NCBI GenBank assembly: GCA_037968995.1
Contig: JBBKWP010000282.1
Coordinates: forward strand, 4,426-68,425
Length of the DNA stretch: 64,000 nucleotides
From: Candidatus Xenobia bacterium
Lineage (GTDB): Bacteria > Vulcanimicrobiota > Xenobia > Xenobiales > JADMJV01
Reading direction: 5' to 3'
Position 1 is the stretch's first letter. Each line of letters opens with the position of its first letter. Shown piece after piece: positions 3,974 through 28,066 of this stretch. A model generated the notes under the pieces. The model did no database searches, had not been told where the DNA came from, and saw only the letters and a program-made list of their open reading frames with translations. Both the position numbers and the translations under genes were made by a program.

Positions 3974-3975
3974 GT

Positions 3976-4659
3976 GTGGATTTACAGGAACCCAAGGAAC
4001 TGGGACGGAATCAGAGGTCTTTGCAAGCCAACGATTCCAACAGCCCTGCTCCCCCACTACCCGTGTCGCTACTCTCTGACCTGAGACACCGTAGCGGGCT
4101 CATGGCCGGAGCCCCCGCCCACGCAGAACTTGGGACGGCTAGACCGGCTGTGGTTTTCGCGCCACTGGTTTTACCTGACTGGGACGGTTCCATCAACGAT
4201 GCCAAATTTCTGTTCATCAAACGGTCGTCCCATATGCGTCGTCACGCCGGTCAAGTCGGCTTTCCGGGCGGCGTGATCGACGGCCAAGACGAGAACCTTT
4301 TGGAAACGGGCTTTCGTGAGTCTCATGAAGAGATCGGGCTGAGTCGTAAAACGGTGGAAGTCCTCTGTTCGCTCTCTCCGAGAGCTGTGCCCAGCGGATT
4401 CCATCTCTACCCTTTTTTCGTCGCCACGGTCCAACGCGAGTTTATCTTACAGGAATCCGAAGTCGAAGCTGTCCATCTTGTGCCGGTCCAAGAGCTTTTG
4501 GATTGCAAATTTCGAGCCGAACAGAAGGAATGGCAGGGCACTCAATATCGTGTGGTCTACTTCGATCTCGACGAGCTGTGCATCTGGGGTATCACCGGGC
4601 GGATTCTCGAAGTCGTCCTCGAAACTTTCTTCGATTGGAAACCCCGGCACAATGAGTGA
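3976..4659 (+). CDS. Nudix hydrolase, CoA pyrophosphatase subfamily (NudL/Pcd1-like)
   Basis: The 'FLFIKRSSHMRRHAGQVGFPGG' NuCoA-type motif is followed directly by the Nudix box '..GFRESHEEIGL'. GTG start 2 nt after the previous stop; an internal ATG at 4102 is an alternative start. Confidence 0.75.
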   Translation: MDLQEPKELGRNQRSLQANDSNSPAPPLPVSLLSDLRHRSGLMAGAPAHAELGTARPAVVFAPLVLPDWDGSINDAKFLFIKRSSHMRRHAGQVGFPGGVIDGQDENLLETGFRESHEEIGLSRKTVEVLCSLSPRAVPSGFHLYPFFVATVQREFILQESEVEAVHLVPVQELLDCKFRAEQKEWQGTQYRVVYFDLDELCIWGITGRILEVVLETFFDWKPRHNE

Positions 4660-11154: not shown

Positions 11155-14057
11155 CGGAGGTCGGCTCACGAATACTAAAAGCCGTCGTGATGGGCGGCGG
11201 CCAAGGTACGCGCCTGCGCCCCTTGACCTGCCATTTACCAAAACCCATGGTTCCGGTCTGCAATAGGCCGGTGATGGAATACTGCCTGGAACTCCTTCAA
11301 CGGCACGCGACGACACACGTCTACGTGACCCTCCATTATTTGGCCGACGAAGTGATAGCTCACTTCGGTAATGGCAGCGATTTCGGCCTCCGCATGCATT
11401 ACAGTGTCGAACAAGAGCCGATGGGAACCGCCGGTAGCGTGCACCTCCTGAAAGATTCGTTAGACTCCACTTTCTTCGTCGTCTCCGGTGATGCCTTGAC
11501 CGACTTCGACCTCCAGGCGGCCCTGCAGTTCCACCGAAAAAGCAAAGCCAAGGCAACCCTCGTCCTGACTCGGGTTCACAACCCGTTGGAATTTGGCGTC
11601 GTGGTAGTCGACGAAGAACATCGGATCATCCGATTCCTGGAAAAGCCGACTTGGGGTGAAGTGTTCTCTGACACCGTGAACACAGGGATATATATTCTCG
11701 AGCCCGATGTTCTCGACCTGATCCCCGCTGGGCAGGCCTTCGATTTCTCGAAAGACCTGTTTCCCCTTATGCTCGAACAAAAAATGCCCCTCTTTGGCTA
11801 TGTCGCCGAAGGCTACTGGTGCGATATCGGGACCTTGGAACAGTATCAGGACGCCAACCGCGATCTGCTGACCGGCAAGGTGGATCTCACTTTACCTGGC
11901 AAGGAGCTTCGGCGCGGAATCCACGTCGGCAAAGGCACCCGAATTCATCCAGGCGCTCAACTCGAACCGCCTCTTGTGATCGGTAAAAACTGTCGAATCC
12001 GAGAAGGCGCCCGCCTTCTTGAGGGCACCGTCGTAGGTGACAACTGCATCATAGAAGAAGGAGCCAGCCTTCATCGTGACGTGGTCTGGGAAGACACGTT
12101 CATCGGGCGAAAAGTTCGGTCAGAGGCGGCCATCATCGGTCGCAAGGTCACCCTCAAATCGCACACCGTGGTCGGTGAGGGAGCCGTACTGGCCGATGAG
12201 GTGACTGTCGGCGAAGGTGCCAATGTGTTTCCCCGAGTCAAGATCTGGCCTAAAAAGAAGGTTGAGCCCGGAGCGCACGTCTCCCTTTCACTCATTTGGG
12301 GTCAGCGATGGCCTAGTTCGATGTTCGGCCGAGAGGGCATCGTAGGCCTCGGGAATATTGAACTCACCTCAGAGTTCGCCCTCAAGTTGGGCTCAGCTTA
12401 CGGTTCGCTTTTGAGCAAAGGAAGTACCATCATCTTGGCCCGCGACAGTCACCCCGCGTCGCGAATGATCAATCGCTCGCTGATTTGTGGTCTCATTTCG
12501 GTGGGAATCAACGTTCAGGACCTTCGCATCACTCCAACTCCGGTCACTCGTTTCGTGTTACGCAACACTGCTGCGCTCGGGGGAATCCATTGCCGACTCG
12601 CCAAAGACGATGTTCGTAACCTACAGATTCAGTTCTTCGACGAGCGCGGAGTCAACGTCGGAAAGTCGGTGGAAAGAAAAATCGAAAACTCATTTTTTCG
12701 AGAAGAGTTCAGAAGGACCCTCATGGATGAGGTGGGTCACATTGACTTCCCCGGTCGTACCACCGAGCAGTACTCCGAAGAGTTCGCTTCAAAGTTGGAC
12801 CTTGAGCTCTTAAAAGAAGCTGGCTTCAAGGTCGTCGTCGACTACGGCTCGGGTGGCTCATCTACCGTTTTACCTCAGATTCTCGGACGACTCGGCTGCG
12901 AAAGCGTAAGCATCAATGCCCATCTCGATCCTATCCGAGCCCGCGAATTGCCTTTCGATTCCCCGTTGAGGCTCAATCAACTTTCCGACATAGTCACCAC
13001 TTTGCGCGCCGACCTGGGCGTTTTACTGGACCCGGTTGGTGAGCGGATGGCCCTTATCGACGACAAAGGCGAACAGATCGACGGTTCGACCCTGCTCATC
13101 CTTATGACCATTCTCGTAGGACAAACCGAAAACGGAGTCTTGGTCGCCGCTCCTGTGTCGGCTCCTTCCGTGCTCGAGAGCATCCTACTGCCCAAAGAAG
13201 GCCGGGTTGTTCGCACTGGAGTCGATTTGCGGTCACTGATGCATCGAAGCCAGTTGGGCCGCGATCGCATCCGACTCGCGGGAACCTCCGAAGGTGAACT
13301 TTTCTTTCCCGACTTTTCTTCAGGTTTCGATGCGATGTTCTCCTTCGTGAAGCTTTTGGAGTTGATGTCTCGTCATAAGGTCGCCCTATCCGAGGTCAGA
13401 GCCTTAGTACCTAAGATTCACCAAGCAAAGAAAGAGCTACCGTGCTCTAGTCTCGAAAAAGGACGACTCATGCGCCGTCTGCTCGAGGAAATGAAAGATC
13501 GAGACTTGGAGATGACGGACGGGCTCAAGATTCTCTCGCCCGGAGGCTGGGTTTTGGTAGTACCCGCGCCATCACGGCCATCGTTACTGCTGTGGTCAGA
13601 AGGGCAAACCGTCGAGCAGGCTCAGAACCTCATCAGTGAGATCTCCGACGTACTGACGAAGTTGATGGAAGCACCGGTCACCCCAGAGGAGACGACCTCC
13701 GTAACCCCGTCCTTATCGCATCAAAATCCCACCCTCCCCGAAGAGAAATCTTTCCATTTTTGGAACACTCAACGCTATTTGGGAGTACGTGCCAGGACAT
13801 TTTCTGAGTTCCTCGACACCCTTCACTACATCGAGACTTCCTCGCTAACTTACCATTTTAAGCGAGGGGATTTTTCCAACTGGGTAGAACACGAACTGCG
13901 CGATCGATGGCTGGCAGACCAGATCCGAATGCTGGAAGCCGACCCTGATCGTCTAGAATCTCTTCGCTCGAGCCTGGTTCAACTGCTCAGTCAGTCAGTC
14001 CATCATCGACCACCCGAAGAGACTAGTGGGAACTTAACAGAAAGTGAGGCGACATAG
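11151..14057 (+). CDS. Sugar-1-phosphate nucleotidyltransferase (ManC/GlmU-like NTP-transferase + left-handed beta-helix) fused to a degenerate phosphomannomutase/phosphoglucomutase-like module and an extra C-terminal domain
   Basis: The N-terminus has 'KAVVMGGGQGTRLRPLT' and 'FLEKP', followed by hexapeptide repeats (residues about 270-390). A four-domain PMM/PGM-like region follows. Its Ser loop reads 'GGIHCRLAKDD' instead of TASHNP, and its metal loop reads 'DPVGER' instead of DGDGDR. I prefer ATG 11151 to the ORF-track start 11106. Confidence 0.75.
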   Translation: MTEVGSRILKAVVMGGGQGTRLRPLTCHLPKPMVPVCNRPVMEYCLELLQRHATTHVYVTLHYLADEVIAHFGNGSDFGLRMHYSVEQEPMGTAGSVHLLKDSLDSTFFVVSGDALTDFDLQAALQFHRKSKAKATLVLTRVHNPLEFGVVVVDEEHRIIRFLEKPTWGEVFSDTVNTGIYILEPDVLDLIPAGQAFDFSKDLFPLMLEQKMPLFGYVAEGYWCDIGTLEQYQDANRDLLTGKVDLTLPGKELRRGIHVGKGTRIHPGAQLEPPLVIGKNCRIREGARLLEGTVVGDNCIIEEGASLHRDVVWEDTFIGRKVRSEAAIIGRKVTLKSHTVVGEGAVLADEVTVGEGANVFPRVKIWPKKKVEPGAHVSLSLIWGQRWPSSMFGREGIVGLGNIELTSEFALKLGSAYGSLLSKGSTIILARDSHPASRMINRSLICGLISVGINVQDLRITPTPVTRFVLRNTAALGGIHCRLAKDDVRNLQIQFFDERGVNVGKSVERKIENSFFREEFRRTLMDEVGHIDFPGRTTEQYSEEFASKLDLELLKEAGFKVVVDYGSGGSSTVLPQILGRLGCESVSINAHLDPIRARELPFDSPLRLNQLSDIVTTLRADLGVLLDPVGERMALIDDKGEQIDGSTLLILMTILVGQTENGVLVAAPVSAPSVLESILLPKEGRVVRTGVDLRSLMHRSQLGRDRIRLAGTSEGELFFPDFSSGFDAMFSFVKLLELMSRHKVALSEVRALVPKIHQAKKELPCSSLEKGRLMRRLLEEMKDRDLEMTDGLKILSPGGWVLVVPAPSRPSLLLWSEGQTVEQAQNLISEISDVLTKLMEAPVTPEETTSVTPSLSHQNPTLPEEKSFHFWNTQRYLGVRARTFSEFLDTLHYIETSSLTYHFKRGDFSNWVEHELRDRWLADQIRMLEADPDRLESLRSSLVQLLSQSVHHRPPEETSGNLTESEAT

Positions 14058-14580: not shown

Positions 14581-16608
14581 ATGAGCGATTCACAAGCCGA
14601 TCTCGTCCAACGCCTTCTTAAACTGCGCGAAGCCGTCGCTTATCACAACCAGCGCTATCACCAACTCGACGACCCCGAGATTTCAGACTTTGAGTTTGAC
14701 TCGTTGGTACGAACACTTCGGGACTTGGAGGTTTCGCTTCTGGACCTCGAGCCGGAAAAGACGACCGCTCTAGCGGTTGGCGCAGCCCCTTCAAAGCGAT
14801 TCCATCACGTCGAACATTCGCAACCGATGATGTCGCTGGAGAACGCGACGTCACGGACCGATCTTGAGCACTGGGTCCAACGAATGAATCGTTATGTCGA
14901 TTCGGATCTTGAGACCGTCTGCGAACTCAAAATGGATGGGCTGGCCGTCTCGCTTCTTTATGAACAAGGCCAACTCGTAAGGGCGGCGACCCGAGGGGAT
15001 GGACGCGTCGGCGAAGACGTCACTGCCAATGCCTTGACCGTTTCGAACATCCCAACCCGACTTAAGGCCGACCAGATTCCGGCGCGCCTGGAACTGCGAG
15101 GGGAAATCTACATGCCCCTGACTTCATTCGAGGGTCTCAATCGACAACAGGCTCAAAATGGGGAGCGCTTGTTCGCAAACCCTCGCAACGCGGCCGCCGG
15201 CTCATTGCGCCAGAAAGACTCTTCCGTGACCGCCTCGCGTCATCTGGCTTTTGTGGCCTATCAACTGACCGCCACTGAACCCGAGGCGAACATCGCCACC
15301 CATTGGGACGCGATGAGGTATTTGGCAGATCTTGGCCTTCCGATCAACGAGCACTCTAGCCTAGTCAAGGGGCTCGATAGGGTCTATGAGTACTGCTTAA
15401 AATGGCAGACGAACCGCCATCTCAACAACTTTGAGATCGATGGGGTGGTGGTGAAGCTCAATCGTCTGGACCACCAGACCGACCTCGGGTCGACCTCCAA
15501 AGCTCCTCGTTGGGCCATCGCCTACAAGTTTCCCCCAGAAACCCAGACCACTCTCCTGCAAGACATTATGGTTTCCATCGGTCGCTCAGGTAAAGCCACG
15601 CCCTTTGCTCTTCTTGACCCCGTTTCAGTCAGTGGGTCAATCCTAAGGATGGCGACCCTTCATAATCAAGACCAAGTCACCCAAAAAGACGTACGACCAG
15701 GCGACACGGTGATCGTTCGTAAGGCCGGCGATGTGATCCCGGAAGTCGTCGGTCCCGTCTTGTCCTTACGGCCCAAGGACTGTCCTCCTTGGAGCTTTCC
15801 CAACAAATGCCCGGAGTGCGGCGCCCCCCTGATAAGACAACCCGACCAGAGCGACACGTTTTGCTTGAATTCCGCCTGTCCAAAGCAACAGGTGCAGCGA
15901 ATCGCTCATTTTGTCTCTCGCGATGCGATGAATATAGAGCAACTAGGAGAGCGCACCATTCAAACCTTGCTGAGCAAAGGTCTGATCCGTGATTCGGCGG
16001 ACCTTTACTCCATCGATTACGATCGCTTGTTGGCCTTGCGTGGTTTTCAGCGGGCCTCGGCGGCTAAATTGGCCGGGGCCATCGAGGACTCCAAAAAGCG
16101 TCCCCTATCGAACCTCCTGCTCGCTCTAGGTATCGCCCATCTCGGTAAGGCAGGGTCGCAACTTTTGGCGCGTACGATGGGCGATATCGACCGCATCGTC
16201 AAAGCGTCGACTGACGTCATTGCCGCCGTGGACGGCATCGGACCGATCATCGCACAGAGCGTTCACGATTTTTTCGCGGACCCCCACAACCGTGACCTCA
16301 TCGAGCGTCTACGAAACGCTGGGGTCAACCTCAGCGCCCCCGATCTCCCTTCTTCGCCTCAAACTCTCGTCGGAAAGTCCCTGGTGGTCACGGGAACACT
16401 GCAAGGATTCACTCGGGAAGCCGCTGTGGAAGCCATCACAGAGTGCGGAGGAAAGTCTCCCGGCAGCGTTTCCAGACAGACGACGGCCCTGGTATTGGGA
16501 GAGGCTCCCGGCACCGCTAAAATCAAGAAGGCACAAACTTTGGGCATTCCGGTCATCGATGAAGCCGCGTTCGTGACGCTCTTGGAAACCGGTCAACTCG
16601 AGGAATAA
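14581..16608 (+). CDS. ligA: NAD-dependent DNA ligase (copy 1, canonical length)
   Basis: Domain Ia ('YHNQRYHQLDDPEISDFEFD'), the adenylation motif 'CELKMDGLAVSL', 'FANPRNAAAGSLRQKD' and 'PRWAIAYKF' are present. So are the Zn finger 'CPECGAPL..C.NSACP', the HhH region and the BRCT 'GKSLVVTGTL'. The ORF track starts at GTG 14563; ATG 14581 fits LigA N-termini better. Confidence 0.92.
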   Translation: MSDSQADLVQRLLKLREAVAYHNQRYHQLDDPEISDFEFDSLVRTLRDLEVSLLDLEPEKTTALAVGAAPSKRFHHVEHSQPMMSLENATSRTDLEHWVQRMNRYVDSDLETVCELKMDGLAVSLLYEQGQLVRAATRGDGRVGEDVTANALTVSNIPTRLKADQIPARLELRGEIYMPLTSFEGLNRQQAQNGERLFANPRNAAAGSLRQKDSSVTASRHLAFVAYQLTATEPEANIATHWDAMRYLADLGLPINEHSSLVKGLDRVYEYCLKWQTNRHLNNFEIDGVVVKLNRLDHQTDLGSTSKAPRWAIAYKFPPETQTTLLQDIMVSIGRSGKATPFALLDPVSVSGSILRMATLHNQDQVTQKDVRPGDTVIVRKAGDVIPEVVGPVLSLRPKDCPPWSFPNKCPECGAPLIRQPDQSDTFCLNSACPKQQVQRIAHFVSRDAMNIEQLGERTIQTLLSKGLIRDSADLYSIDYDRLLALRGFQRASAAKLAGAIEDSKKRPLSNLLLALGIAHLGKAGSQLLARTMGDIDRIVKASTDVIAAVDGIGPIIAQSVHDFFADPHNRDLIERLRNAGVNLSAPDLPSSPQTLVGKSLVVTGTLQGFTREAAVEAITECGGKSPGSVSRQTTALVLGEAPGTAKIKKAQTLGIPVIDEAAFVTLLETGQLEE

Positions 16609-16664: not shown

Positions 16665-17648
16665 CTAAACTTCGTAGATCCCGAGTTCGAAGAGTTGAGC
16701 CGTCATATGGCCCGGTAGAACTTGGTCGAATCGCTGCTTGGGAGGGGCAGACGCCAACTCCATCATCTTGCGAGGGTCCAGGAGAAAATTCTCGTCTTTC
16801 TTTTCCGCTCGGAAGGCGTTTCTTTCCTCAGACGCTGCGGCCGCGAATTCTCGCTCGAAGTCCAGGATGTCCTGATGATCGCGACTGCGCTCCTCAGCCG
16901 CCATGTGCCGTTGTTCCATTCCACGCATGTCCTTCATGCCCATCTCCACGGCGGACTGAATTTCGCTGGTGGGAGGCATTTCGGTACGCCATCTCTCTTC
17001 GTCTTGCTCTTGCTGGAGCTTCAGGGCTTTCTTCTTTCCGCTGACAATCATTCGACCGAGTTCTCCCTGGACAGCCGGATCGGCCAGTTGACCCGCATTC
17101 TGCTGCAGAAAACTGCGCGCGCGATCGGCTTCACTTTTGGTGAACTTGTCGATCTGGGCACCGTGTTTATTCGCCAAGCTCAATCTGTTGGCTGACTCGA
17201 AGCCTTCTCGGGCGGACTTGAACGGGGTGGTCTCAGCGCCGTTCTTCACTTTCGGTTTTCCCCCGTCATCGGTGAGGACTTTTCCTTTTCCGTGACTTCC
17301 GAACTCGGTGTCGTAATGATTTTCCTTAAAAAATTCGTCTTTTAGTTTGCTGAAATCTTTGCGCATGGAGGACTCGAGGCCCATGCGTTCTTGCAGATTT
17401 CCGGTTTGCAGTTTATGAAGACCTTCGTAAGCCTTGTCCGGATAATCGACATGAATGGAGGTGGACGCGCCGCCAAGGATTCCGCCTCTTTTGATATCCA
17501 AGCCTTTGCTCATACTGGCCTTGAGTCGATCAGCCTGCTGCGCGGTCTGCTGCTGCATCTGATTGAGTTGCCCCTGCTGCTGCTTGACTTGCGAGGCGCC
17601 TTTTATGGTATTGATGATCATTCCAATACCCATCACTGCCCACATCAT
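16665..17648 (-). CDS. Hypothetical protein with N-terminal membrane anchor and Q-rich segment
   Basis: 327 aa. 'MMWAVMGIGMIINTI' is a TM-like helix, followed by 'QVKQQQGQLNQMQQQTAQQ'. The rest is charged and helical. GGAGG lies about 9 nt upstream of the ATG. No family recognised. Confidence 0.5.
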   Translation of the reverse strand: MMWAVMGIGMIINTIKGASQVKQQQGQLNQMQQQTAQQADRLKASMSKGLDIKRGGILGGASTSIHVDYPDKAYEGLHKLQTGNLQERMGLESSMRKDFSKLKDEFFKENHYDTEFGSHGKGKVLTDDGGKPKVKNGAETTPFKSAREGFESANRLSLANKHGAQIDKFTKSEADRARSFLQQNAGQLADPAVQGELGRMIVSGKKKALKLQQEQDEERWRTEMPPTSEIQSAVEMGMKDMRGMEQRHMAAEERSRDHQDILDFEREFAAAASEERNAFRAEKKDENFLLDPRKMMELASAPPKQRFDQVLPGHMTAQLFELGIYEV

Positions 17649-18632: not shown

Positions 18633-21386
18633 CTAAGATTCGCCTTCATCGGCCAGACGCAGCCCCAAGGGCAGGGAGTCTCCGTAGAGCGCGGCGGACT
18701 CTTCTCTGGTTCGAACCGACTCGCCCCGCAATTGAGCCAGCACGCGCTCTCCCACACTTTCAGCCACTAGCGAAGATTCTACGCGGTCCCAAAGATCTGT
18801 TGCGAGGTCTCTGAGCGGGTCCCCGCAACGGGCCGCGATGGTCACCAGAGCCAGCTTCCCAAAGCTAGTACTCTGCCATCGTGACTGTAAGATACTCTCC
18901 ACCACGGGCGCCACCTCGGTGCCGGAAATCACGTGGCCGACAGCGCTGGGGTCCAAAGGCTTGCGGGCCGCCAAACGAGCCAGCAACCAGAGTTCCTCAC
19001 GGCCGCCGTCCAACCGTTCACAAAGCACCTTGGCCAGGGCCAATTTCTCGTCGGTTGAGATGCGCTCCAAACTGACCGCCATCCGCAACATCTCTTTAGC
19101 GTCCTCTTTGCCGGGATTGCCTTTGTTGCGCGTCTTGATGTGCTTTCGACCCGGCAAGTAAAGAGGATGCACTTGGTCCCAGAGATGGGACTGAGTCTCG
19201 TCGCGCAAGCCGGCGGCAACCCGGCGCCAAAGGATGAAAAACTGGGCCTTCACCGCATCGTCTCGGGAAAACTGAAGCCAAGCTTGCAAGAGCTTCTCTA
19301 ACTGCAGAACTCGCCACTCGTCGAGAGGCAGACCGAAACCGGGTCGCAAACAGAACCCGATACCGTTAAGCCAGGCCGCTTCGTACTCGGGTTCCACCCG
19401 GCGCCGGGACTCCATGGCCCAGTAGCTGTCCCATAAAGTTCGCAGCACGACCGAAGGCCACTCGTCGCGGGGCTGACCCAACACAGTCTCGAGGCCCAAA
19501 AGAAGATTCTTGGGGCGGGTCGGCGCGGCTTTCAACTGTTTCGGTTTGTAGGCAAACGTCTGAGCCACTAAGCGGCGCGCTTCCTCTACCTCGCTTCGGG
19601 CCAGGTCCGCGGACGCAGAACCCGCCACACCGTCTCGCACGGAGAACTCCAGACGAAACTCGCCCTTTCGCTCTCCTTTGCAACGGATATCTAAGGTTCC
19701 CACGGGAGTGACTTCCGCCTCGAGATGAACCTTGATCTCCTTGTCTTCAGCTCGCTCGAGATCCACCCGGGTCTGTAGAGTTGGTAGCGGCACGAGATCC
19801 GAGAGTCCGACCAGCACCCCCGCTTCGTCTTTCGGCCGCATAGACGAGGAAAAAAGTGGAAATGCCACCGGCTCACCGACTCTTAGGACAAGCTTAGGCT
19901 CCGGCAAGGTCACCAACTGTCCCTCTCGGGTAGAACTGGGTATCACGCAGACCGCCTGTCGGTCGGCTAAGCCTAAATAGTAAGAGCGGGCGGTCCCGCC
20001 TTCGACCACTAAACCATCGGTCAAACGCTGATGGCCGTACCAGGCCGCTCCCCTCGCAACCGCTAAATGTGCCTCTTCGTTCTCCAGTTCGACAACAGGT
20101 GCATCCCGTCCCAACTCCCGATTCCACTGATTCAGAATCTCAAGCACTCTCTGACGCACGACTCCTGAGGCGCAGGCGCCGCCGTTGAAGAGAACTCGGG
20201 TGGGGAAATGGTCCTCATGGGCATGAAGGAAGCGACTCAGGTGTCTTGGGATAGCCGGATCCGACTCAAAGGGTAGTCCCAACTCTTTGAGTCCTCGCCC
20301 ACCGCCCTTCAACAGTATGTCCTCATAGTCGAGGCGGGGGAAAAAACCGTCAAGCACCAGATTCAACAGTTCCGCGCGCTCGATCTCGGCGGAAAGCGCT
20401 CCGCCCAGCAGCTTAGAACCACTCCCGGGCACCACGACCGTAGCGCGGTCGGGGGCTTCATCGCCGAGCAGAAGCTCTTTACACGCCCGGCACTGCTGCC
20501 GAAGCACCCCCCACTGCAGACCGTTGAGCTTCTCGGGAAGGCGAGGCTCCACCGCGTACGCTAATGCGATGTCGAGGTTGTCTCCCCCTAACATCAGGTG
20601 GTCGCCCACCGCGACACGTTCAAGTTCGTCTCCCTGGGAGGTGCGAATCAAGGTGAAGTCGGTGGTTCCTCCGCCGATATCGCAAACCAGCACGACGTCA
20701 CCTGATTGAAGATGTTTTTTCCAGTCCTTGCGTCGACGCCAGAGCCACGAATAGAAAGCCGCCTGCGGCTCTTCCAAGAGACGCACCGGAAGACCCACGG
20801 AAGCCGCTGCTCCGGCGGTCAATTTGCGAGCCAGGTCGTCAAAACTCGCGGGAATCGTCAGCACCACTTCACTGCCCTGCAGAGAGTCCTGGGGGAACCG
20901 GTAGTTCCAAGCCTCTATGATGTGCTCGAGATAGCGTGTAATAGCCCCCACAGCCGAAACCGGTTGGAGATCGCCGGCCCGCTCCCAAGGCAACATACGT
21001 TCGGTGGGATCCACATTGCGATGAGCCAGCCAGGATTTCGCCGAAACAACACAACGTCCGGGTACACGCGAACCCTGAAATCGAGCGAACTCACCCACCA
21101 AAAACGAGCGTTGGGGGTCCCAGGGGAGCGAAGTGGATTCCGACGGGAGTTCATAATCGCCCGGTAGGTAGAGAAAGGATGGCAACAGATCCCGTTCGCC
21201 CACCTCCACCGACGAGATCCGCTGGGTGATGGGAACAGTTTCCAGTCGATTCCCTCTGGGTTCGAACCGCGAGATCGCCGTGTTGGAGGTTCCAAGATCG
21301 ATACCGACGACTTGACGGCCGGTCACCAAGATGTCATTCCTCTTCGTGTCGAACGTTGAACTCGAGCTTCCAACGTCCCGGACCAT
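18633..21386 (-). CDS. Hsp70-family ATPase, long form (about 900 aa) with about 320-aa C-terminal extension
   Basis: Hsp70 ATPase motifs 'VVGIDLGTSNTAIS', 'VCDIGGGTTDFTLI', 'MLGGDNLD' and 'VLFNGGACA' are present. The beta-rich C-domain is paralogous to that of the neighbouring Hsp70. The ATG 21386 start overlaps the upstream gene by 53 nt; TTG 21329 or GTG 21326, just after that gene's stop, are alternative starts. Confidence 0.8.
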   Translation of the reverse strand: MVRDVGSSSSTFDTKRNDILVTGRQVVGIDLGTSNTAISRFEPRGNRLETVPITQRISSVEVGERDLLPSFLYLPGDYELPSESTSLPWDPQRSFLVGEFARFQGSRVPGRCVVSAKSWLAHRNVDPTERMLPWERAGDLQPVSAVGAITRYLEHIIEAWNYRFPQDSLQGSEVVLTIPASFDDLARKLTAGAAASVGLPVRLLEEPQAAFYSWLWRRRKDWKKHLQSGDVVLVCDIGGGTTDFTLIRTSQGDELERVAVGDHLMLGGDNLDIALAYAVEPRLPEKLNGLQWGVLRQQCRACKELLLGDEAPDRATVVVPGSGSKLLGGALSAEIERAELLNLVLDGFFPRLDYEDILLKGGGRGLKELGLPFESDPAIPRHLSRFLHAHEDHFPTRVLFNGGACASGVVRQRVLEILNQWNRELGRDAPVVELENEEAHLAVARGAAWYGHQRLTDGLVVEGGTARSYYLGLADRQAVCVIPSSTREGQLVTLPEPKLVLRVGEPVAFPLFSSSMRPKDEAGVLVGLSDLVPLPTLQTRVDLERAEDKEIKVHLEAEVTPVGTLDIRCKGERKGEFRLEFSVRDGVAGSASADLARSEVEEARRLVAQTFAYKPKQLKAAPTRPKNLLLGLETVLGQPRDEWPSVVLRTLWDSYWAMESRRRVEPEYEAAWLNGIGFCLRPGFGLPLDEWRVLQLEKLLQAWLQFSRDDAVKAQFFILWRRVAAGLRDETQSHLWDQVHPLYLPGRKHIKTRNKGNPGKEDAKEMLRMAVSLERISTDEKLALAKVLCERLDGGREELWLLARLAARKPLDPSAVGHVISGTEVAPVVESILQSRWQSTSFGKLALVTIAARCGDPLRDLATDLWDRVESSLVAESVGERVLAQLRGESVRTREESAALYGDSLPLGLRLADEGES

Positions 21387-23088
21387 CGCGTTCGACGCAA
21401 TAAAGTTCCAGGGTCCCTAGTTCTGTGGCCACGGTCTCTAGCCGAACAGGAACGGATCTGGCATCGGCGCCTTCTTCCTTTAAAGTGGTGCCGATGGCGG
21501 CCAGTTGCTCGATCCCAACATCCTCCCACTCTTCGTGAACCTGTCCCACCAAATCTTCCGACTTCTGTGTCGCACCCAGAAAGGGAAATTCCACGGGTTC
21601 TCCGAGAACCAAGCCGAAGTCCTGATCCGGTACTTCTAATGAGGTCCCCTCTTCCATGCCTTGAGGCGCGACGCAGACGGCCTTGATGGGGGGTTCGATC
21701 CCAGGCACGGCCGGCATAGCGAGTTCCACACCGATGTAGTAAGCTCGAGAAAGCCCACCTCGAATGCGGATCCCGTGGCCCTTCTTCACCAAACCGTAGC
21801 GGGCCGCTCCTCTGGCCACAGCCAACTCCAAGTCCGTCCCCTCCAGTTGGCGAACGGGCTCCCCATACCAATGTTCCAGGATGTCCAAAAGTCGGGTGCG
21901 CATTTCGGCGGCTTGAAAGACACCCCCGTTGAAGAGAATGGCAGTAGGACGCCGATCGCCTAAGAAGCCCGAAAGGTGTCGAGTGATGGCGGGGTCCGAT
22001 TCATAAGGAAGTCCCAGTTCTGTCAGGCCCACTCTGCGATGACTGGTGGGCATGGTTCCAAGGTCGACCTCCGGGAAAAATCCGCCCAAAAGAACGCGCT
22101 CAGCCTCTTCGCGCGAGACGGTAATCTGCAGCGCTCCACCAATCAAAGAGCTTCCGCGGCCCGGAATGGTAATGGAAAACTCCGAAGGCTCGGAATCTCC
22201 CAAAAGCTTTTCCTTAGCTTCTCGGCATCCGTAGGTGAGAACTTGAAACTGCCAGGCGTCGAGTTTGGTCCCTTCTCCTTTGAGACGTTGGCGCACCGCC
22301 ATGGCTAAGGCCAGGTCCATATTGTCGCCGCCCAGCAAGATGTGTTGTCCCACCGCTACTCGCTCGAGGTCGAGATCGCCGTCGGCTTCGTGCACCTGAA
22401 TCAAGGAAAGGTCCGTGGTTCCGCCTCCGATATCGCAGACCAAAACCAAATCGCCTTTTTTGACCTGCTCTCGCCAACTGTCCCCGCAGTTTTCCAGCCA
22501 TGCGTAGAAAGCGGCTTGAGGCTCCTCAAGTAACGTCACCTGGTTCAAACCGGCGTTCTTGGCGGCCTCGGCGGTGAGATCTCTCGCGACAGCGTCAAAG
22601 GATGCCGGAACCGTCAAAACGACGTCCGCATCGTCTAAGGGTTCCTGCGGATATTCAAATCTCCAGGCCGACACGAGGTGACGCAGATACTCGGTCGAGG
22701 CGGCCACTGGGCTCATCGGCGTCAGGTCCTCAGCGCCTTTCCAGGGGAGGATAGGTTTACTTCGCTCCACGCCTTCTTGAGACAGCCAGGATTTGGCCGA
22801 CGATATGAGACGGTCCGGCTTCTTGGCGCCTTCCTTACGCCCGTAGACGCCTACAGCGCGCAAGTTGACCTCGTCCCAGGGCAGAGAAAGCTGTAAGGCT
22901 GACAGTTCGTGAGCACTCGGCAAGTAGAGGAAGGAAGGAAGCGTATTGCGACTCTCCACGACCCCGTTGTCAACAAGTTGAGGAATGCCGAAAACGCCTC
23001 CCTCGGGTGGGGCGTCCCCGTCCTCGCTCGCTTTGGCGTAAGCCAAGGTACAGTTGGTGGTTCCTAGATCGATTCCAAACGTTCTCAT
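21334..23088 (-). CDS. Hsp70-family ATPase, short form (no helical lid)
   Basis: Motifs 'MRTFGIDLGTTNCTLAYA', 'VCDIGGGTTDLSLI', 'LLGGDNMD' and 'ILFNGGVFQ' are present. The protein ends '..NVRHEEE'. ATG 23088 has GGAG 8 nt upstream; the ORF-track start is GTG 23106. Confidence 0.85.
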   Translation of the reverse strand: MRTFGIDLGTTNCTLAYAKASEDGDAPPEGGVFGIPQLVDNGVVESRNTLPSFLYLPSAHELSALQLSLPWDEVNLRAVGVYGRKEGAKKPDRLISSAKSWLSQEGVERSKPILPWKGAEDLTPMSPVAASTEYLRHLVSAWRFEYPQEPLDDADVVLTVPASFDAVARDLTAEAAKNAGLNQVTLLEEPQAAFYAWLENCGDSWREQVKKGDLVLVCDIGGGTTDLSLIQVHEADGDLDLERVAVGQHILLGGDNMDLALAMAVRQRLKGEGTKLDAWQFQVLTYGCREAKEKLLGDSEPSEFSITIPGRGSSLIGGALQITVSREEAERVLLGGFFPEVDLGTMPTSHRRVGLTELGLPYESDPAITRHLSGFLGDRRPTAILFNGGVFQAAEMRTRLLDILEHWYGEPVRQLEGTDLELAVARGAARYGLVKKGHGIRIRGGLSRAYYIGVELAMPAVPGIEPPIKAVCVAPQGMEEGTSLEVPDQDFGLVLGEPVEFPFLGATQKSEDLVGQVHEEWEDVGIEQLAAIGTTLKEEGADARSVPVRLETVATELGTLELYCVERDGPGRWKLEFNVRHEEE

Positions 23089-23152
23089 ACGATACTCTTT
23101 CTCCACATGGAGAGCCCTCTAAAACCTACAGGTTCAGTGCGGCTCGAACGGT

Positions 23153-23641
23153 TCAGTCGAGTTCGACTTCGGCGGGCAGCAAGATATCGGCAGCCCCCAG
23201 TACCGGCAATTGGTCTCTCTCCAGGCGCCAACCGTGATGCCGCAACACTCCTGAGAAAGGCGGGTCACCCTCGACCTTCCCTACCAGCGCAATTTCATGG
23301 GCGTCGAAACCCAATTCAACGTCTACGCGTTCGCCTTCTTTTTGCTCCATCACTGGAACCAGAGTGAGATACTGCTGCAAGATCTGCCGACAGCCCTTCT
23401 GCATGCCCCGAGCCACGGAGCCCACTTGAGCGTCAGGAAAGCCCGAAAGATCTTCCTGCAGAAAGTCGATAAAACGACCCTCCTTTTGGAAGGCAGCCAA
23501 AAGCTGAGCCGATGAAGACGTCGCTTTCACGGGCTCAGGTAAGGCCAACTGGTTCTCTTGCATCAACTCGGCAATCTTCTCAGACGTCGGGTTGTTTCTC
23601 AGGCAACGAAAGAATGCTTTAAAAGCTAGCGCCAATCCCAA
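23153..23641 (-). CDS. DUF2760-like protein (assignment from memory of the family, unverified)
   Basis: 162 aa. It has an amphipathic N-terminus 'GLALAFKAFFRCL' and a 'QKEGRFIDFLQEDL' motif. It lies between the TPR gene and the Hsp70 genes, the neighbourhood I associate with DUF2760. TTG start 4 nt after the TPR stop, with GAGGG about 8 nt upstream. Confidence 0.55.
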   Translation of the reverse strand: MGLALAFKAFFRCLRNNPTSEKIAELMQENQLALPEPVKATSSSAQLLAAFQKEGRFIDFLQEDLSGFPDAQVGSVARGMQKGCRQILQQYLTLVPVMEQKEGERVDVELGFDAHEIALVGKVEGDPPFSGVLRHHGWRLERDQLPVLGAADILLPAEVELD

Positions 23642-23645
23642 AACA

Positions 23646-25232
23646 TTAGCCCTCGGGAAGGTCTTTCATCCAGGCCCGATACAGTTCCGTTTCGTCGAGG
23701 CTCTCGATGTCCCGGAGATAACGTCCGGTGTGACGGGAAAGTCCCGCCGCGCGAGCGATCTCAAGAGCGTCTCGAAAGGCACCGACGGCTTCGGGATAGC
23801 GCTTCAGTTGTCGGTAAAGAATACCTAACTCATAGTGCGCCTCCGCACGCCAGGCTTGGGGACCCTTTTCGGGTAGCTCTTCGATGGACTCGAGGTGAAG
23901 CTTCTCTGCTTTCGCGTAATCCTTGGTCAGACGGCAGATGACGCCCTTTAAGGTTTTCAAAAACGCCAATTCGCGATCCATCTGCTGCTCGCTGAAAATC
24001 GCCTCGGCTTTGGTGGCGACTTCGTTGGCTTCAAGCGACCGGTCGGCCTTCACGTAGGCCTGCGCCAAGTCCATATAGACGCGTCCCAGGTTGATCTGGT
24101 CTTCCACGTATTGGAAAAGTCCGATGCTTTCCTTAAGATTTGTGATGGCCTCTTCGGTGATGCCGACCTGAATCAAGGACCGACCAAGGTTGCGGTAACT
24201 GTACCCGAGTGCGTAGTAGTTGCCGTTGCGGGACGAGATATCGAGATCTCGACGAAAATATTTGACGGCGGTCTCGTAATCTTCGCGGATCATATAGACT
24301 TGACCCAATTTACCGTAGAGGGTCGCCAGTTCAGAGTTGGCTCCAAGGCGACGACAGATGGACTCCGCCTTCTTGTAGGAGAAGATCGCTTCTTCCATCC
24401 GATTGTTCGCGGCGAAGGTGCGTCCAATGGAGTCGTAAACCTTAGCTTGACCGTACCGGCAACCGGCCAACTTGTAGATGCGCAGGCCCTCCAAGTGATG
24501 CTCGAGAGTCTGGCGGTGAGCCCCCCTCATACTGCACATCACTCCGAGATAGCGTCGACTGGCAGCCGCTTCCAAGCTGGGCTGGTCACCCAGGACGTCA
24601 AGAGCCTTCTGGAACGCCTCGGAGGCCGCTTGATTATTTCCTGTGCGAAAGTAGTAGAGTCCGAACTGAGAGTTATAAAGCGCGGCCAACTCCCGTTCCG
24701 CCGAATCCTCGGGCGTCTCCGGCACGAAAGCTTTGGCATCCAGCAGAAGGTTCTTAGCCTCTTCGAGCTCTCCGGTTCGTCCCGCGCTGGCCGCGATGTG
24801 ACACATCGCCTCGGCTTTCTTTTGCACCAGACCGAGTTCGTCTGCCACTTCTCGAGCCTCTTGAAAATGGTCTCTCGCCTCTTCTCGCTCCCCCCTACGG
24901 GACATAGTGACTCCCAGCCCCAACAGTGCCTCAGCCACAGCACTTCGCTCGTCGCCCTCAAGCTCAGACTCCACCACTCGACGGTACTCTCGCTGGGCTC
25001 GATCCCAGCGACCCACGACCTGGCACGCCTTGGCGTAGCGATTTCGCGCTTTGGCCACGTTGAATTCCCGACCGTCGCCGGAAAGCTTCTGGGCGGTCTT
25101 CAAGACCCGGTCGAAATGTCGCAACGCGGCCGAATAGTCAAGCCTCTTGAGAAGCTCTTCGCCTTGCTCCATCAACTCCTCGAAAGGACGTTCCTCTTCC
25201 ATCTTGGAGAGCAATTGTTCGGTTGTGCTCAT
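23646..25232 (-). CDS. Tetratricopeptide-repeat (TPR) protein, first gene of the Hsp70 operon
   Basis: 528 aa containing about 10-11 34-residue repeats with the A/G/Y/L TPR pattern (e.g. 'ALGYSYRNLGRSLIQVGITEEAITNLKESI', 'AHYELGILYRQLKRYPEAVGAFRDALEI'). No HPD J-domain motif. Confidence 0.8.
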   Translation of the reverse strand: MSTTEQLLSKMEEERPFEELMEQGEELLKRLDYSAALRHFDRVLKTAQKLSGDGREFNVAKARNRYAKACQVVGRWDRAQREYRRVVESELEGDERSAVAEALLGLGVTMSRRGEREEARDHFQEAREVADELGLVQKKAEAMCHIAASAGRTGELEEAKNLLLDAKAFVPETPEDSAERELAALYNSQFGLYYFRTGNNQAASEAFQKALDVLGDQPSLEAAASRRYLGVMCSMRGAHRQTLEHHLEGLRIYKLAGCRYGQAKVYDSIGRTFAANNRMEEAIFSYKKAESICRRLGANSELATLYGKLGQVYMIREDYETAVKYFRRDLDISSRNGNYYALGYSYRNLGRSLIQVGITEEAITNLKESIGLFQYVEDQINLGRVYMDLAQAYVKADRSLEANEVATKAEAIFSEQQMDRELAFLKTLKGVICRLTKDYAKAEKLHLESIEELPEKGPQAWRAEAHYELGILYRQLKRYPEAVGAFRDALEIARAAGLSRHTGRYLRDIESLDETELYRAWMKDLPEG

Positions 25233-25590: not shown

Positions 25591-26583
25591 ATGAAAAAAA
25601 CCGTTCTGCGTCTCACTCTATGCCTACTCGCTCTCGTCGCGTCAGGCTGCGGTGGCAGCGACCCGCTCGACAGCTTCAACGACACCTTCAATTCCGTCAG
25701 CCAGTCGGTCACGCAAACCGTGACCCGTGTAACCCACGTGAACTGGAACACCTACAACGTCTACCGTTACGAAGCGGACGCCTGGGTGCCTGTGATCAGC
25801 CAAGGCAACGTCCTCAGTCTGCCTCCTCTGGGCCAGCGTCCGGTCATGATCGTGCATGGTCTGGGTTCCGACATCGTTTCGAAGAGATTCGACGATGTCG
25901 CGAAGGCCTTGCAACAAGCGGGTGCGACCGCTATCCTCGGATTCGAATACGACACTCTCGATGCTGTGTCTAAAAACGGCAGCCTTCTGGTCGAGGCTCT
26001 GAATCTGCTCACCGACAACGACCCCGGTCGCCAATTTTCGCTGATGGGGCACAGCATGGGAACGCTCGTCACGAGGGTCGCTCTGGAAAGTGGCCTAACT
26101 TTCGATATCGCTCCGACCGGAAATCGTGCGGTCTTGGTGGCCGGCCCACATTTGGGCAGCGAAGTGGCCCAGGCGATTCAAGCTCGACCCAATCTGTTTC
26201 AGGAAGTCTTGCAGCTTTTAGTCTTGAACGGCAACATGGAGTTTCGTAACCTTGACGGTCGCCGAGTCGCGGTGGACGGACAGGAGCAGGGCTTCAGCGA
26301 CCTCATTCCGGGCAACTCGTTCCTGACCGGGCTCAACTTCGAAGCCGCCAATCATCACCCGCAGTTTGAGTACCGTACGATCGCGGGCAACAAGCGGGGC
26401 ACCGACTACGAAGCTATCGCCCGTCTGCTGGGCGTCTTCGAAGATGACGGTGTCGTGGGTCTATCGAGTGCCAACGCCGGGGTGATAGGTCAGGTAGCTT
26501 CAACCATCGGTAGCGGAGACCACACCACCATTACAACCAACCCAGTGGCGGTTCAGAAAATTCTAGAGTTCCTGGGATTCTAA
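25591..26583 (+). CDS. Lipoprotein, alpha/beta-hydrolase (lipase/PGAP1-like)
   Basis: 'MKKTVLRLTLCLLALVASGCGG' is a signal peptide with the lipobox LVASG|C. 'PVMIVHGLGS' and the nucleophile elbow 'LMGHSMGT' are present. ATG 25591 is preferred over the ORF-track start 25441. Confidence 0.7.
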   Translation: MKKTVLRLTLCLLALVASGCGGSDPLDSFNDTFNSVSQSVTQTVTRVTHVNWNTYNVYRYEADAWVPVISQGNVLSLPPLGQRPVMIVHGLGSDIVSKRFDDVAKALQQAGATAILGFEYDTLDAVSKNGSLLVEALNLLTDNDPGRQFSLMGHSMGTLVTRVALESGLTFDIAPTGNRAVLVAGPHLGSEVAQAIQARPNLFQEVLQLLVLNGNMEFRNLDGRRVAVDGQEQGFSDLIPGNSFLTGLNFEAANHHPQFEYRTIAGNKRGTDYEAIARLLGVFEDDGVVGLSSANAGVIGQVASTIGSGDHTTITTNPVAVQKILEFLGF

Positions 26584-27563
26584 AAGGTCGGTCTCGGTCG
26601 GTCCCACCACCAGAACAGCAGCCATCCCACGGCCAGTCCTAAGGTCACTCGGGCTGCGTGCTCGCGATGACGGACCTTCTTCTTCGTCTTCATCGCTGTG
26701 ATAGGTTGGGGTGGCGCGGCCCGATAGTGACGGACGGGACGAGTGCAAAACTCATTGAGCAGATCCGCTGCGGTATGGGCTAAAACTTCGAACGCGGCTT
26801 CCCCTAATTCCGCTGTTGCGACGGCCGGCGTTCCGAAATACCCACGATGAGCCCGAAGCGCCCGCAACCTCTTTCGGGTGCCGCTGGGCACTGGATGGGC
26901 CGGCAGCGTCTTGTATTGGCTGCCCACCAGGTGAGGTGTGATATGCAGCAGCAGCGCGGTCTCCCAACCAGCGGCATGAACGTCGCCGTTGAGCCCCGCG
27001 ACTTCGGCCTCGGTGTAAGGTCGACCCAAGCGCTTTTGTACTGCCTCATCATAGTCTCCCACCAGGAATCCTTCCAGCAGGTGCTTGGACGGGGAGATGA
27101 CTCTCATGCGAGTTTTACTCTCCAAAATTCGAGCGGCTTCGTTGAGTGCATACAGATGATCGTCGGCTCCGTGCGAGGTCAACAACACCAGTCGACGAAC
27201 TCCCAGGCGCTCCAACTCTTCGCCGTACTCCAGGAGAGCCTTGATCAACGTTTTTTTCTTCAACCGCAAGCAGCCAAGACTGGCTAGTGCGCTGGCGCCC
27301 TGGTACCAAAGCGGGAGCATCACCGCGTGCGCTTCACTTTCCGGCAGACCAACGGCGGTCACGGGAGTGACCAATTCCGCCACGCGATAGGCCAGAGCGT
27401 CACAAATGATAGGGTCCGTTCCACTGGGTAGGTGGCTGGCGTGATCTTCCAAGGGGGCCACACCAAGGAAAAAAAGGCTTCCACGATAGGCCTCTTCTCG
27501 GAGCTCGTCCCAAGTCAGTTCATCAGCGTTCTTTACGTTCATAAAATCGGCCTTCGCTCTCAT
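26580..27563 (-). CDS. Creatininase-family amidohydrolase with C-terminal basic + TM tail
   Basis: Creatininase-family metal-site motifs 'EDHASHLPSGTDPII', 'LLTSHGADDH' and 'GDVHAAGWETALLLHI' are present. The C-terminus 'VTLGLAVGWLLFWWW' is hydrophobic. Starts at ATG 27563 or 27542 avoid overlap with the upstream gene; the ORF-track start is 27665. Confidence 0.65.
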   Translation of the reverse strand: MRAKADFMNVKNADELTWDELREEAYRGSLFFLGVAPLEDHASHLPSGTDPIICDALAYRVAELVTPVTAVGLPESEAHAVMLPLWYQGASALASLGCLRLKKKTLIKALLEYGEELERLGVRRLVLLTSHGADDHLYALNEAARILESKTRMRVISPSKHLLEGFLVGDYDEAVQKRLGRPYTEAEVAGLNGDVHAAGWETALLLHITPHLVGSQYKTLPAHPVPSGTRKRLRALRAHRGYFGTPAVATAELGEAAFEVLAHTAADLLNEFCTRPVRHYRAAPPQPITAMKTKKKVRHREHAARVTLGLAVGWLLFWWWDRPRPTF

Positions 27564-27607
27564 CAATAGAGCCCCTGGTCTGCTTCCGCCCGCGGAAAAA
27601 GGGACGC

Positions 27608-28066
27608 CTAGAACACGTCTTGTCCGAATTTGGCCTCGTAGCTGTCGGCTGCCAATGCGACGCACTCCAGAGCCGCTTCGAAGCCATTCGGATTGAGCGA
27701 ATTGAGCAAGAGGTCGTAACTGGCCACGATGATATAGCTCTCTTCTTCCTCTTGAACCCCGTAGCGCGCGAAGTTCAGCTTTTCATTGAGCAAGAGAAGC
27801 TCTAGGGCCATGGTCTTGCTAATACCTTTAAACATTCCCTTGTCAACCACTAAGCAGATGGAGTGCACCGCGATCACCGGTACCTCGGGCTCTAACGAAG
27901 AGTCGCTGACGCAGACGTCCTGAGTGCGTCCATTGGGTAAACCGAAGCGGATCACGTACTGAGAGTTCTCCAGGTCGTGCTCGCCTTCGATTTCGCACTC
28001 ACCCGCCAGTTGCTCAATTCTCTTCAACACTTCGTTTGCTTGACTCAAACTCAAAACGACACCCAC
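27608..28066 (-). CDS. Hypothetical protein, possibly YbjN/T3SS-chaperone-like fold
   Basis: 152 aa, acidic. The alternating beta/helix pattern and 'MALELLLLNEKLNFARYGV' resemble YbjN-family proteins. This is a weak call made by eye. Confidence 0.35.
   Translation of the reverse strand: MGVVLSLSQANEVLKRIEQLAGECEIEGEHDLENSQYVIRFGLPNGRTQDVCVSDSSLEPEVPVIAVHSICLVVDKGMFKGISKTMALELLLLNEKLNFARYGVQEEEESYIIVASYDLLLNSLNPNGFEAALECVALAADSYEAKFGQDVF

Follow-up and report, generated by a model that had tools for sequence, protein, structure and literature searches.

A four-gene operon encoding a tetratricopeptide repeat protein, a DUF2760 protein and two non-canonical Hsp70 paralogues, and the widespread three-gene module that it contains

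Organisation of the locus

In the textbook view Hsp70 proteins require a J-protein for their action, and DnaK also requires GrpE. In this study we analysed a 64,000-nt stretch of DNA from a Candidatus Xenobia bacterium (contig JBBKWP010000282.1; hereafter the window, to which all coordinates refer), in which two Hsp70-like ATPases of different length, the short and the long Hsp70, are encoded next to a tetratricopeptide repeat (TPR) protein and a protein of the DUF2760 family. The four open reading frames (ORFs) are tightly spaced on the minus strand between 25232 and 18633, as the initial annotation of this DNA had described, and they form a real four-gene operon (Table 1). The profile hidden Markov model search that had been proposed as a check on that annotation assigned TPR, DUF2760, HSP70 and DUF3731 domains to the products (Pfam).

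The TPR and DUF2760 genes are 4 nt apart, and the short Hsp70 gene begins 46 nt (GTG start) or 64 nt (next ATG) after the DUF2760 gene. The junction between the Hsp70 genes is a 53-nt overlap if the long gene starts at ATG 21386 and a 4-nt gap if it starts at TTG 21329; the spacings reported previously stand except for this gap, which had been given as 5 nt. TTG 21329 is likely to be the start and ATG 21386 unlikely, because a 95% identical homologue (P0001) has 898 aa, because the other close homologues range from 889 to 925 aa, with 97-98% coverage of the ATG-start query, and because a GAGGA sequence lies 8 nt upstream of the TTG. This putative Shine-Dalgarno sequence is situated within the 3' end of the short gene, which points to translational coupling between the Hsp70 genes. 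In relatives the same junction is a 4-nt ATGA overlap. A scan for promoters and terminators returned sites no more frequently than in shuffled sequence, with no above-chance terminator within the operon, and no CIRCE element was found in the window.

Table 1. Genes, protein parts and sequence signals of the operon (window positions)
Feature	Position	Strand	Description
TPR protein	23646..25232	-	528 aa; first gene of the operon
DUF2760 protein	23153..23641	-	162 aa; second gene
DUF2760 N-terminal amphipathic helix (predicted)	23600..23635	-	LALAFKAFFRCL, aa 3-14; hydrophobic moment ~0.6
DUF2760 C-terminal motif	23156..23176	-	PAEVE[LIV] + 0-2 residues; PAEVELD here
Short Hsp70	21334..23106	-	590 aa; lidless; third gene
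Short Hsp70, nucleotide-binding domain (NBD)			~aa 8-438
Short Hsp70, linker-like segment			GIRIRGG, aa 445-451
Short Hsp70, beta subdomain of the substrate-binding domain (SBDβ)			~aa 455-587
GAGGA Shine-Dalgarno	21338..21342	-	Within 3' end of short Hsp70 gene, 8 nt before TTG 21329; read from sequence
Long Hsp70	18633..21329	-	898 aa from TTG 21329; last gene; alternative ATG 21386
Long Hsp70, NBD			First part, before SBDβ
Long Hsp70, SBDβ	19635-19985	-
Long Hsp70, armadillo-like DUF3731 solenoid	18654-19625	-
Long Hsp70 C-terminal motif	18654..18677	-	(E/D)SLP[VLIA]GLRL; SLPLGLRL here

Domain composition and family placement of the Hsp70 paralogues

Both ATPases gave a partial match to the Pfam HSP70 NBD (PF00012), with 67 bits for the short and 43 bits for the long protein against a cutoff of 20.6, and the MreB_Mbl model also matched both NBDs. 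Every Hsp70 motif quoted by the initial annotation was found at its expected place. The two proteins are 42.7% identical over 593 columns, and the identity runs through the NBD and the beta-rich domain behind it. An AlphaFold2 (AF2) model of the C-terminal 462 aa of the long Hsp70 (predicted local distance difference test score, pLDDT, 85.5) consists of a beta-sandwich followed by an all-helical solenoid. Foldseek paired the sandwich with DnaK, BiP and HscA substrate-binding domains (probability 1.0, E 1e-4), and the helical part with designed armadillo repeats, APC-ARM and Armc8. On this model the beta-rich C-domain is a genuine Hsp70 SBDβ, and the short Hsp70 probably has one too, judging from its 42.7% identity to the long paralogue through that domain. 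The description of a beta-rich domain common to both paralogues therefore stands, with the amendment that a substrate-binding domain is present.

The helical region of the long Hsp70, aa 667-911 if the ORF is counted from the ATG, corresponds to DUF3731, 'DNA-K related protein' (PF12531; E 4e-59; 201 bits, cutoff 25). The short Hsp70 terminates 4 residues beyond the last SBDβ strand and has no lid. Taken with the models, this makes the short protein a lidless Hsp70, and the long one an Hsp70 with its lid region replaced or extended by an armadillo-like domain. At the extreme end of the long Hsp70 stands a tail motif of which L, P and G are invariant in the long-family alignment. AF2 renders its LRL as a beta strand, and the SBDβ is the sole sheet in the model, which suggests that the tail may dock on the SBDβ as a pseudo-substrate. 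Compared with DnaK, both Hsp70 families have some 15 additional residues, LPSFLYLP...LPW, in NBD lobe I (~nt 22800-22960 in the short and 21050-21200 in the long gene), an insertion that can serve as a family signature.

Comparison with the curated NCBIfam models placed both proteins far from the characterised bacterial families. The DnaK models (TIGR02350 / NF001413) scored 56-58 bits with the short and 44-46 bits with the long Hsp70, against cutoffs of 822 and 648; HscA (TIGR01991) scored 83 and 60 bits against 708.55; the YegD-type model (NF008673, PRK11678) scored 34 and 21 bits against 331; and MreB scored 38 bits against 366. Since these values are far under the cutoffs, neither ATPase should be orthologous to the characterised bacterial Hsp70s, and the view that they are non-canonical, and not DnaK, HscA or YegD orthologues, was borne out. 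No HscC model was among the NCBIfam matches, and our comparison with HscC is made by description, not by sequence.

Comparison with DnaK at residue level

We aligned 40 short and 38 long homologues to DnaK with MAFFT and mapped the residues known from DnaK onto both families. D8, T11, K70, E171, D194, G196-198, T199, D201, P143 and R151 are invariant in both, with the exception of E171 in one gapped long sequence. As these catalytic and allosteric residues are kept, both Hsp70s should bind and hydrolyse ATP and retain the allosteric switch.

The regions through which DnaK is regulated look different. The columns of the VLLLDV linker are gaps in all 78 homologues, and a conserved G-[IV]-x-[IV]-x-G-G segment stands in its place. 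Together with the abrupt end of the short protein after its SBDβ and the armadillo-like domain of the long one, this agrees with the earlier remark that neither protein has a DnaK-type linker or helical lid. Both families have substitutions at the DnaK positions that contact the J-domain (R167, N170, T173 and V218), Arg at 167 being retained by a minority of long-family sequences. The latches of the nucleotide cleft are gone as well: an Arg stands invariably at the position of E267, and neither R56 nor E264 is conserved. In DnaK these latches are what makes the protein GrpE-dependent, and their loss has been tied to independence from a nucleotide exchange factor (NEF) in HscA and HscC (Mayer 2021, PMC8215388).

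We also searched for the missing partners themselves. None of the four operon proteins contains an HPD motif, so the statement made previously for the TPR and 162-aa proteins extends to the whole operon. No J-domain or GrpE was detected among the flanking genes with Pfam, and none within the 64-kb window with phmmer, for which E. coli sequences served as queries; the claim that no GrpE-like gene is nearby holds over this range.

The DUF2760 protein

The second gene of the operon encodes a clear member of DUF2760 (PF10816; E 1e-42, 145 bits against a cutoff of 25). Its AF2 model has a mean pLDDT of 85, with 10-residue blocks over aa 51-130 scoring 91-96, and found no match in the PDB with Foldseek (best E = 2). 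Sequence and profile searches of the PDB with DUF2760 and with the DUF3731 region likewise gave no match. Because it has no structural or sequence relative among solved structures, DUF2760 does not appear to be a J-domain or GrpE in disguise.

The family is large, with 1,821 clusters at 50% identity (E<=1e-10), and the profile match extends to the last residues in most of the proteins listed. Among 150 representatives, 106 have one to three predicted transmembrane (TM) helices N-terminal to the domain, and nearly all of the other 44 start with an amphipathic AFxxFF(R/K)xL helix, as does the protein of the window. The first description of this protein as a small amphipathic partner is thus apt for the window, and it does not carry over to most lineages, in which the counterpart is predicted to be an integral membrane protein. 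The C-terminus is as distinctive as the N-terminus: the PAEVE[LIV] tail is found at the extreme end of nearly all of the 150 representatives, and in the alignment no variation is seen at A157, E158, V159 and E160, and P156 is conserved to 90% or more. Based on these features we propose that DUF2760 may be a membrane-binding or membrane-anchoring partner of the Hsp70 pair.

Conservation of the three-gene module

In order to follow the operon across bacteria we defined a trio, which is not a named system, as DUF2760, short Hsp70 and long Hsp70-DUF3731 genes in this order on the same strand, and scanned one genome per species; the 24 best loci are true orthologues. The trio was present in order on one strand at 18 of these 24 loci, and such a recurrence means that the association exceeds chance. 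The loci belong to Proteobacteria, Desulfobacterota, Acidobacteriota, Planctomycetota, Verrucomicrobiota, Bdellovibrionota and Rokubacteria, and in all the ordered trio is known from no fewer than ten phyla. The trio also occurs at a metagenomic locus (L090), on secondary replicons of Burkholderia and Caballeronia, and on plasmids (loci L087 and L088), namely a Comamonadaceae megaplasmid and a conjugative plasmid of 110 kb from Bradyrhizobium; DUF2760 with the short Hsp70 was found at one Spartobacteria and one Parachlamydiaceae locus. Identity of the short Hsp70 is 55-58% with homologues from metagenome-assembled genomes (MAGs) that carry the labels Armatimonadetes and Margulisiibacteriota, and about 50% with those from Burkholderia.

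No further gene travels with the trio. Among the ORFs that flank 20 loci (108 in all), each Pfam family occurred twice at most, and all-versus-all clustering of the flanking ORFs gave no additional conserved gene. At one locus the short and long Hsp70s form a genuine in-frame fusion (P0047) with a DUF2760 gene ahead of it. Xenobium retains all three genes, divided between two loci, the DUF2760 and short Hsp70 genes apparently lying on another contig (P0192 and P0312). Two further irregularities proved to be artefacts. A 1,499-aa ORF (P0045; L091 7001-11500) resembled a second short-long fusion, and contains the end of the short gene and its stop codon in another frame, so we rejected it as a frameshift; the 'broken' short Hsp70 in L082 is due to a 100-N scaffold gap.

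These observations bear on the idea of a self-contained two-ATPase module, which they favour, as the order of the trio is kept across phyla and neither a J-domain nor GrpE is encoded nearby. The neighbourhood comparison suggested at the outset for all four genes gave a divided answer, in that DUF2760, short and long Hsp70 are kept across phyla and the TPR gene is found only in close relatives. The locus would therefore be a copy of this widespread three-gene module to which a TPR gene has been added.

The TPR protein

The first gene of the operon encodes a protein with eight stretches matching Pfam TPR_12 (E 7e-45). In relatives with a 75% identical long Hsp70 the four-gene order is kept, with a TPR protein of the same 528 aa; the flanking genes are syntenic there too, so this proves little. 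No TPR gene accompanies the triad in other phyla or at L090, where identity has dropped to 48%.

A different kind of evidence came from a Polyangiaceae MAG (L091), where a 509-aa protein combines TPRs (~aa 10-200), hydrophobic TM-like segments and DUF2760 (aa 388-508). Its gene lies directly upstream of the Hsp70 genes and overlaps the Hsp70 start by 4 nt. Such an independent TPR-TM-DUF2760 fusion supports a real link between TPR proteins and DUF2760. Judging from these sequences, the TPR protein is probably a sporadic, lineage-specific accessory that attaches to DUF2760. The proposal that the Hsp70 pair has its own TPR adaptor therefore gains from the fusion as regards the TPR-DUF2760 link, and has to be restricted in that the TPR lies outside the conserved three-gene unit.

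Both DUF2760 (AEVELD) and the short Hsp70 (HEEE) have acidic C-termini here. We considered the EEVD-like tail of the short Hsp70 as a general handle for TPRs, and rejected it since the tail is not conserved outside this lineage.

A probable orthologue with deletion phenotypes

The module has hardly been touched by the literature. A full-text search for DUF2760, DUF3731, PF10816 and PF12531 found no paper; a search for 'DnaK related protein' returned one, with an entry in a Photobacterium proteomics table; and searches for Hsp70-based defence systems and atypical bacterial Hsp70s gave reviews only. The prokaryotic Hsp70 types usually listed are only DnaK, HscA and HscC (PMC8215388), and a 2026 review refers to other DnaK derivatives as unexplored 'dark matter' and proposes Hsp110-like roles for them (PMC13580251). 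The trio is not described as a system in any paper that we found, and its members are already catalogued as Pfam DUFs and as 'Hsp70 family protein'.

One member of the long family has probably been studied. M. xanthus MXAN_5323 is a 925-aa non-canonical Hsp70 (PMC8265645), and the published primers encode the N-terminus MRIVGIDL and the C-terminus AGLRLS*, which match the ends of the long family; it is thus probably an orthologue of the long paralogue. MXAN_5323 is non-essential and is upregulated during development; its deletion reduces sporulation and H2O2 resistance and leaves motility and predation unchanged, and the gene fails to rescue E. coli dnaK deletion mutants (PMC8265645). The statement that the function of the operon is unknown is accordingly not wholly correct, given a probable orthologue with deletion phenotypes.

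Neighbouring genes

Several genes around the operon and its counterparts are described here for completeness. In the window, an ORF at 11106-14057 on the plus strand encodes 983 aa with NTP_transferase, hexapeptide LbH and phosphoglucomutase/phosphomannomutase domains I-II and a C-terminal DUF5752, and a 958-aa counterpart of this multi-domain protein lies near the operon in marine relatives. The minus-strand ORF at 16665-17648, between ligA and a methyltransferase-like gene, encodes a 327-aa Q/E/K-rich protein with no Pfam match; close relatives have a 333-aa gene, also without a Pfam match, near a comparable position on the far side of the long Hsp70. A creatininase ORF at 26580-27665 on the minus strand has 361 aa, compared with 315 aa in relatives, and its 5' end runs into an ORF of 152 aa without a Pfam match at 27608-28066 on the same strand; the creatininase probably starts further downstream.

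At L091, a protein with TPR and AAA ATPase domains is encoded a few genes upstream of the module (3669-4844), a 129-aa DnaJ-domain protein 4.5 kb downstream of it (16073-16462), and Ser/Thr kinase and STAS/SpoIIE genes flank it. At L089 (6509-10385), a solitary long Hsp70-DUF3731 gene stands between SEC-C/YchJ-like and PycTM (Pycsar effector-type TM) genes.

Proposed function and alternative explanations

Taking these results together, we favour with moderate confidence the hypothesis that the module encodes a specialised, NEF-independent and probably J-independent pair of Hsp70s that act together at the cytoplasmic membrane, where they are recruited or regulated by DUF2760. The two paralogues would form one heteromeric ATP-driven unit on the cytoplasmic face of the inner membrane. 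DUF2760 would recruit or regulate the pair there, and would do for it what the membrane-anchored J-proteins DjlB and DjlC do in targeting HscC. Nucleotide exchange would be intrinsically fast, as in HscA and HscC, hence no GrpE would be needed. The lidless short Hsp70 may engage a narrow set of clients, the solenoid and LPxGLRL tail of the long paralogue may regulate or scaffold that protein, and in this lineage the TPR protein may add a docking platform. The physiological role would be that of a non-essential stress or developmental helper.

A number of observations weigh against this hypothesis. The long gene stands alone at L001, L002, L089 and in Xenobium (L084-86), and therefore the pair may not be obligate. 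The DUF2760 protein of the window lacks a TM helix and has a predicted amphipathic helix only. J-proteins and GrpE encoded beyond the 64-kb window could act in trans. The residue mapping was made at about 25% identity with a DnaK sequence of which only residues 109-273 were cross-checked against PDB 1DKG. The orthology of MXAN_5323 is drawn from protein length and the primer-encoded termini only, and its phenotypes are mild and common to unrelated Hsp70 paralogues too. Protein contacts, membrane localisation and ATPase behaviour are, in all of this, deduced from sequence.

A bolder version is conceivable and in our opinion unlikely. Here DUF2760 would be a new class of membrane-anchored co-chaperone that replaces the J-domain, and the two Hsp70s an obligate heterodimer in which the armadillo domain supplies an exchange or lid function, the whole serving to remodel or extract proteins at the cytoplasmic membrane without J-protein or GrpE. 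The heterodimer would then be the prokaryotic counterpart of Hsp70-Hsp110.

Equally tentative is the explanation that the long paralogue is not a chaperone at all and works as a dedicated Hsp110-like co-chaperone, which would assist the short paralogue, or else the housekeeping DnaK, in nucleotide exchange or as a scaffold, either through an NBD-NBD heterodimer as in Sse1/Hsp110 or through its armadillo domain as in HspBP1 and Fes1. Such a role has been proposed for bacterial DnaK derivatives (PMC13580251), and it would fit two Hsp70 paralogues that are co-encoded, apparently translationally coupled and once fused, one of them with a large helical armadillo-like C-terminal extension, in a region where GrpE was not found in the flanks or the 64-kb window. 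Against it, the long paralogue retains all catalytic residues and an intact SBDβ, and occurs alone at some loci; the top 50 Foldseek matches of its helical part are generic armadillo repeats and not HspBP1, Fes1 or Sil1; and both NBDs lack the cleft latches, so that a NEF may be unnecessary.

We also think it doubtful that the module serves regulation or signalling, as StkA or Ssz1 do, holding one membrane-associated regulator or enzyme inactive or active with no part in quality control. Bacterial Hsp70s with a single client do exist, namely HscA with IscU, and StkA (PMC4319316); the PAEVE[LIV] and LPxGLRL tails resemble dedicated recognition peptides; and the developmental upregulation of MXAN_5323 would suit such a role (PMC8265645). 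On the other hand, no conserved client or regulator gene stands beside the trio in 20 loci, the deletion of MXAN_5323 leaves motility and predation unchanged, and the stk locus differs in architecture. That locus encodes StkA, a 540-aa Hsp70 that acts in exopolysaccharide control, with an SCP2-like StkB and a PhaE-like StkC (PMC4319316), and we rejected orthology to it on this architecture, not on a sequence alignment. Together with the NCBIfam scores below cutoff, this upholds the opinion that the operon is distinct from DnaK, HscA, YegD and the stk locus.

An anti-phage or conflict system with the Hsp70-type ATPases as sensor or assembly modules appears improbable. In its favour, the distribution over phyla is patchy and the genomic context variable, megaplasmids and a conjugative plasmid are among the replicons with the trio, certain predicted conflict systems centred on GTPases include Hsp70 components (PMC7159879), and the short Hsp70 has a weak PADLOC match (PDC-M61B, E 1e-4, 95 residues). 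However, none of the four proteins gave a significant match to PADLOC-DB v2; the 108 neighbours show no enrichment of defence genes, their PADLOC matches being two kinases only; the module lacks effector domains such as a nuclease, protease, TIR or pore, as well as any GTPase or tubulin partner; and the short Hsp70 keeps the cross-phylum identity reported above, unlike fast-evolving defence genes.

Finally, that these are ordinary DnaK, HscA, HscC or YegD orthologues, or MreB-type filament proteins, adjacent by chance, is highly improbable despite the matches of both NBDs to the Pfam HSP70 and MreB_Mbl models and database names such as 'molecular chaperone DnaK' or 'Hsp70 family protein', being contradicted by the NCBIfam scores (HscA 83/708, DnaK 56/822, PRK11678 34/331, MreB 38/366), by the loss of the helical lid and VLLLDV linker in both proteins, by the SBDβ, which speaks against MreB and YegD, and by a gene order kept across phyla, which means that the adjacency is not by chance.

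The trio represents a variant of the Hsp70 machine and not a categorically new kind, and provides a concrete test case for an open question of chaperone biology. It is a very widespread family of DnaK derivatives, as DUF2760 alone spans the 1,821 clusters mentioned above. If the pair does work J-free, or if one paralogue serves the other in an Hsp110-like manner, the Hsp70 paradigm would be extended and a bacterial model for the origin of Hsp70-Hsp110 cooperation would be at hand; even as a minor stress helper, the module assigns a context to two Pfam DUFs. Its components are well defined for testing: two probably co-translated Hsp70s, a putative membrane-anchored partner whose fold is without a relative among solved structures, and two strictly conserved terminal peptides.

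Comparison with known systems

The DnaK-DnaJ-GrpE system shares with the module the actin-fold NBD, all catalytic and proline-switch residues and the SBDβ beta-sandwich. It differs in that here the lid and the VLLLDV linker are missing, the J-contacts and cleft latches are altered, and no dnaJ or grpE lies nearby.

By analogy, the best functional match may be HscC with DjlB/DjlC of E. coli. HscC is a specialised Hsp70 of low abundance; it has neither the residues that contact GrpE nor the salt bridges of the cleft, does not depend on a NEF, and is targeted to the plasma membrane by a membrane-anchored partner encoded alongside it (PMC8215388). That partner, however, has a J-domain with HPD, whereas DUF2760 has neither HPD nor a known fold, and HscC is a single Hsp70 with a shortened lid, whereas the module pairs a lidless paralogue with one that bears an armadillo solenoid.

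Among eukaryotic systems, Hsp70-Hsp110 and Ssz1-Zuo1-Ssb (the ribosome-associated complex, RAC) also consist of paired Hsp70 paralogues, one longer and diverged; Ssz1/HSPA14 is another lidless Hsp70; and in the armadillo NEFs HspBP1 and Fes1 an armadillo fold is tied to the regulation of an Hsp70 NBD (PMC13580251). None of these is orthologous to the module in sequence; Hsp110 is eukaryote-specific, and the long paralogue keeps its catalytic residues and carries the armadillo domain in cis. The TPR co-chaperones Hop and CHIP, which recognise EEVD, are comparable in that the operon encodes a TPR protein beside Hsp70s and that DUF2760 and the short Hsp70 have acidic tails; here PAEVE[LIV] is kept even without a TPR gene, and any likeness in binding would be one of analogy.

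In M. xanthus, the stk locus is comparable as a small operon that has a regulatory phenotype and encodes a non-heat-shock Hsp70 paralogue; it differs in having a single Hsp70 and no DUF2760, second Hsp70 or DUF3731. MXAN_5323 is probably of one family with the long paralogue, being in the same length class, with the N-terminus MRIVGIDL and a C-terminus that fits LPxGLRL. The paper that describes it makes no mention of DUF2760, DUF3731 or a paired short Hsp70 (PMC8265645), and it provides the sole phenotype data for a protein of this kind.

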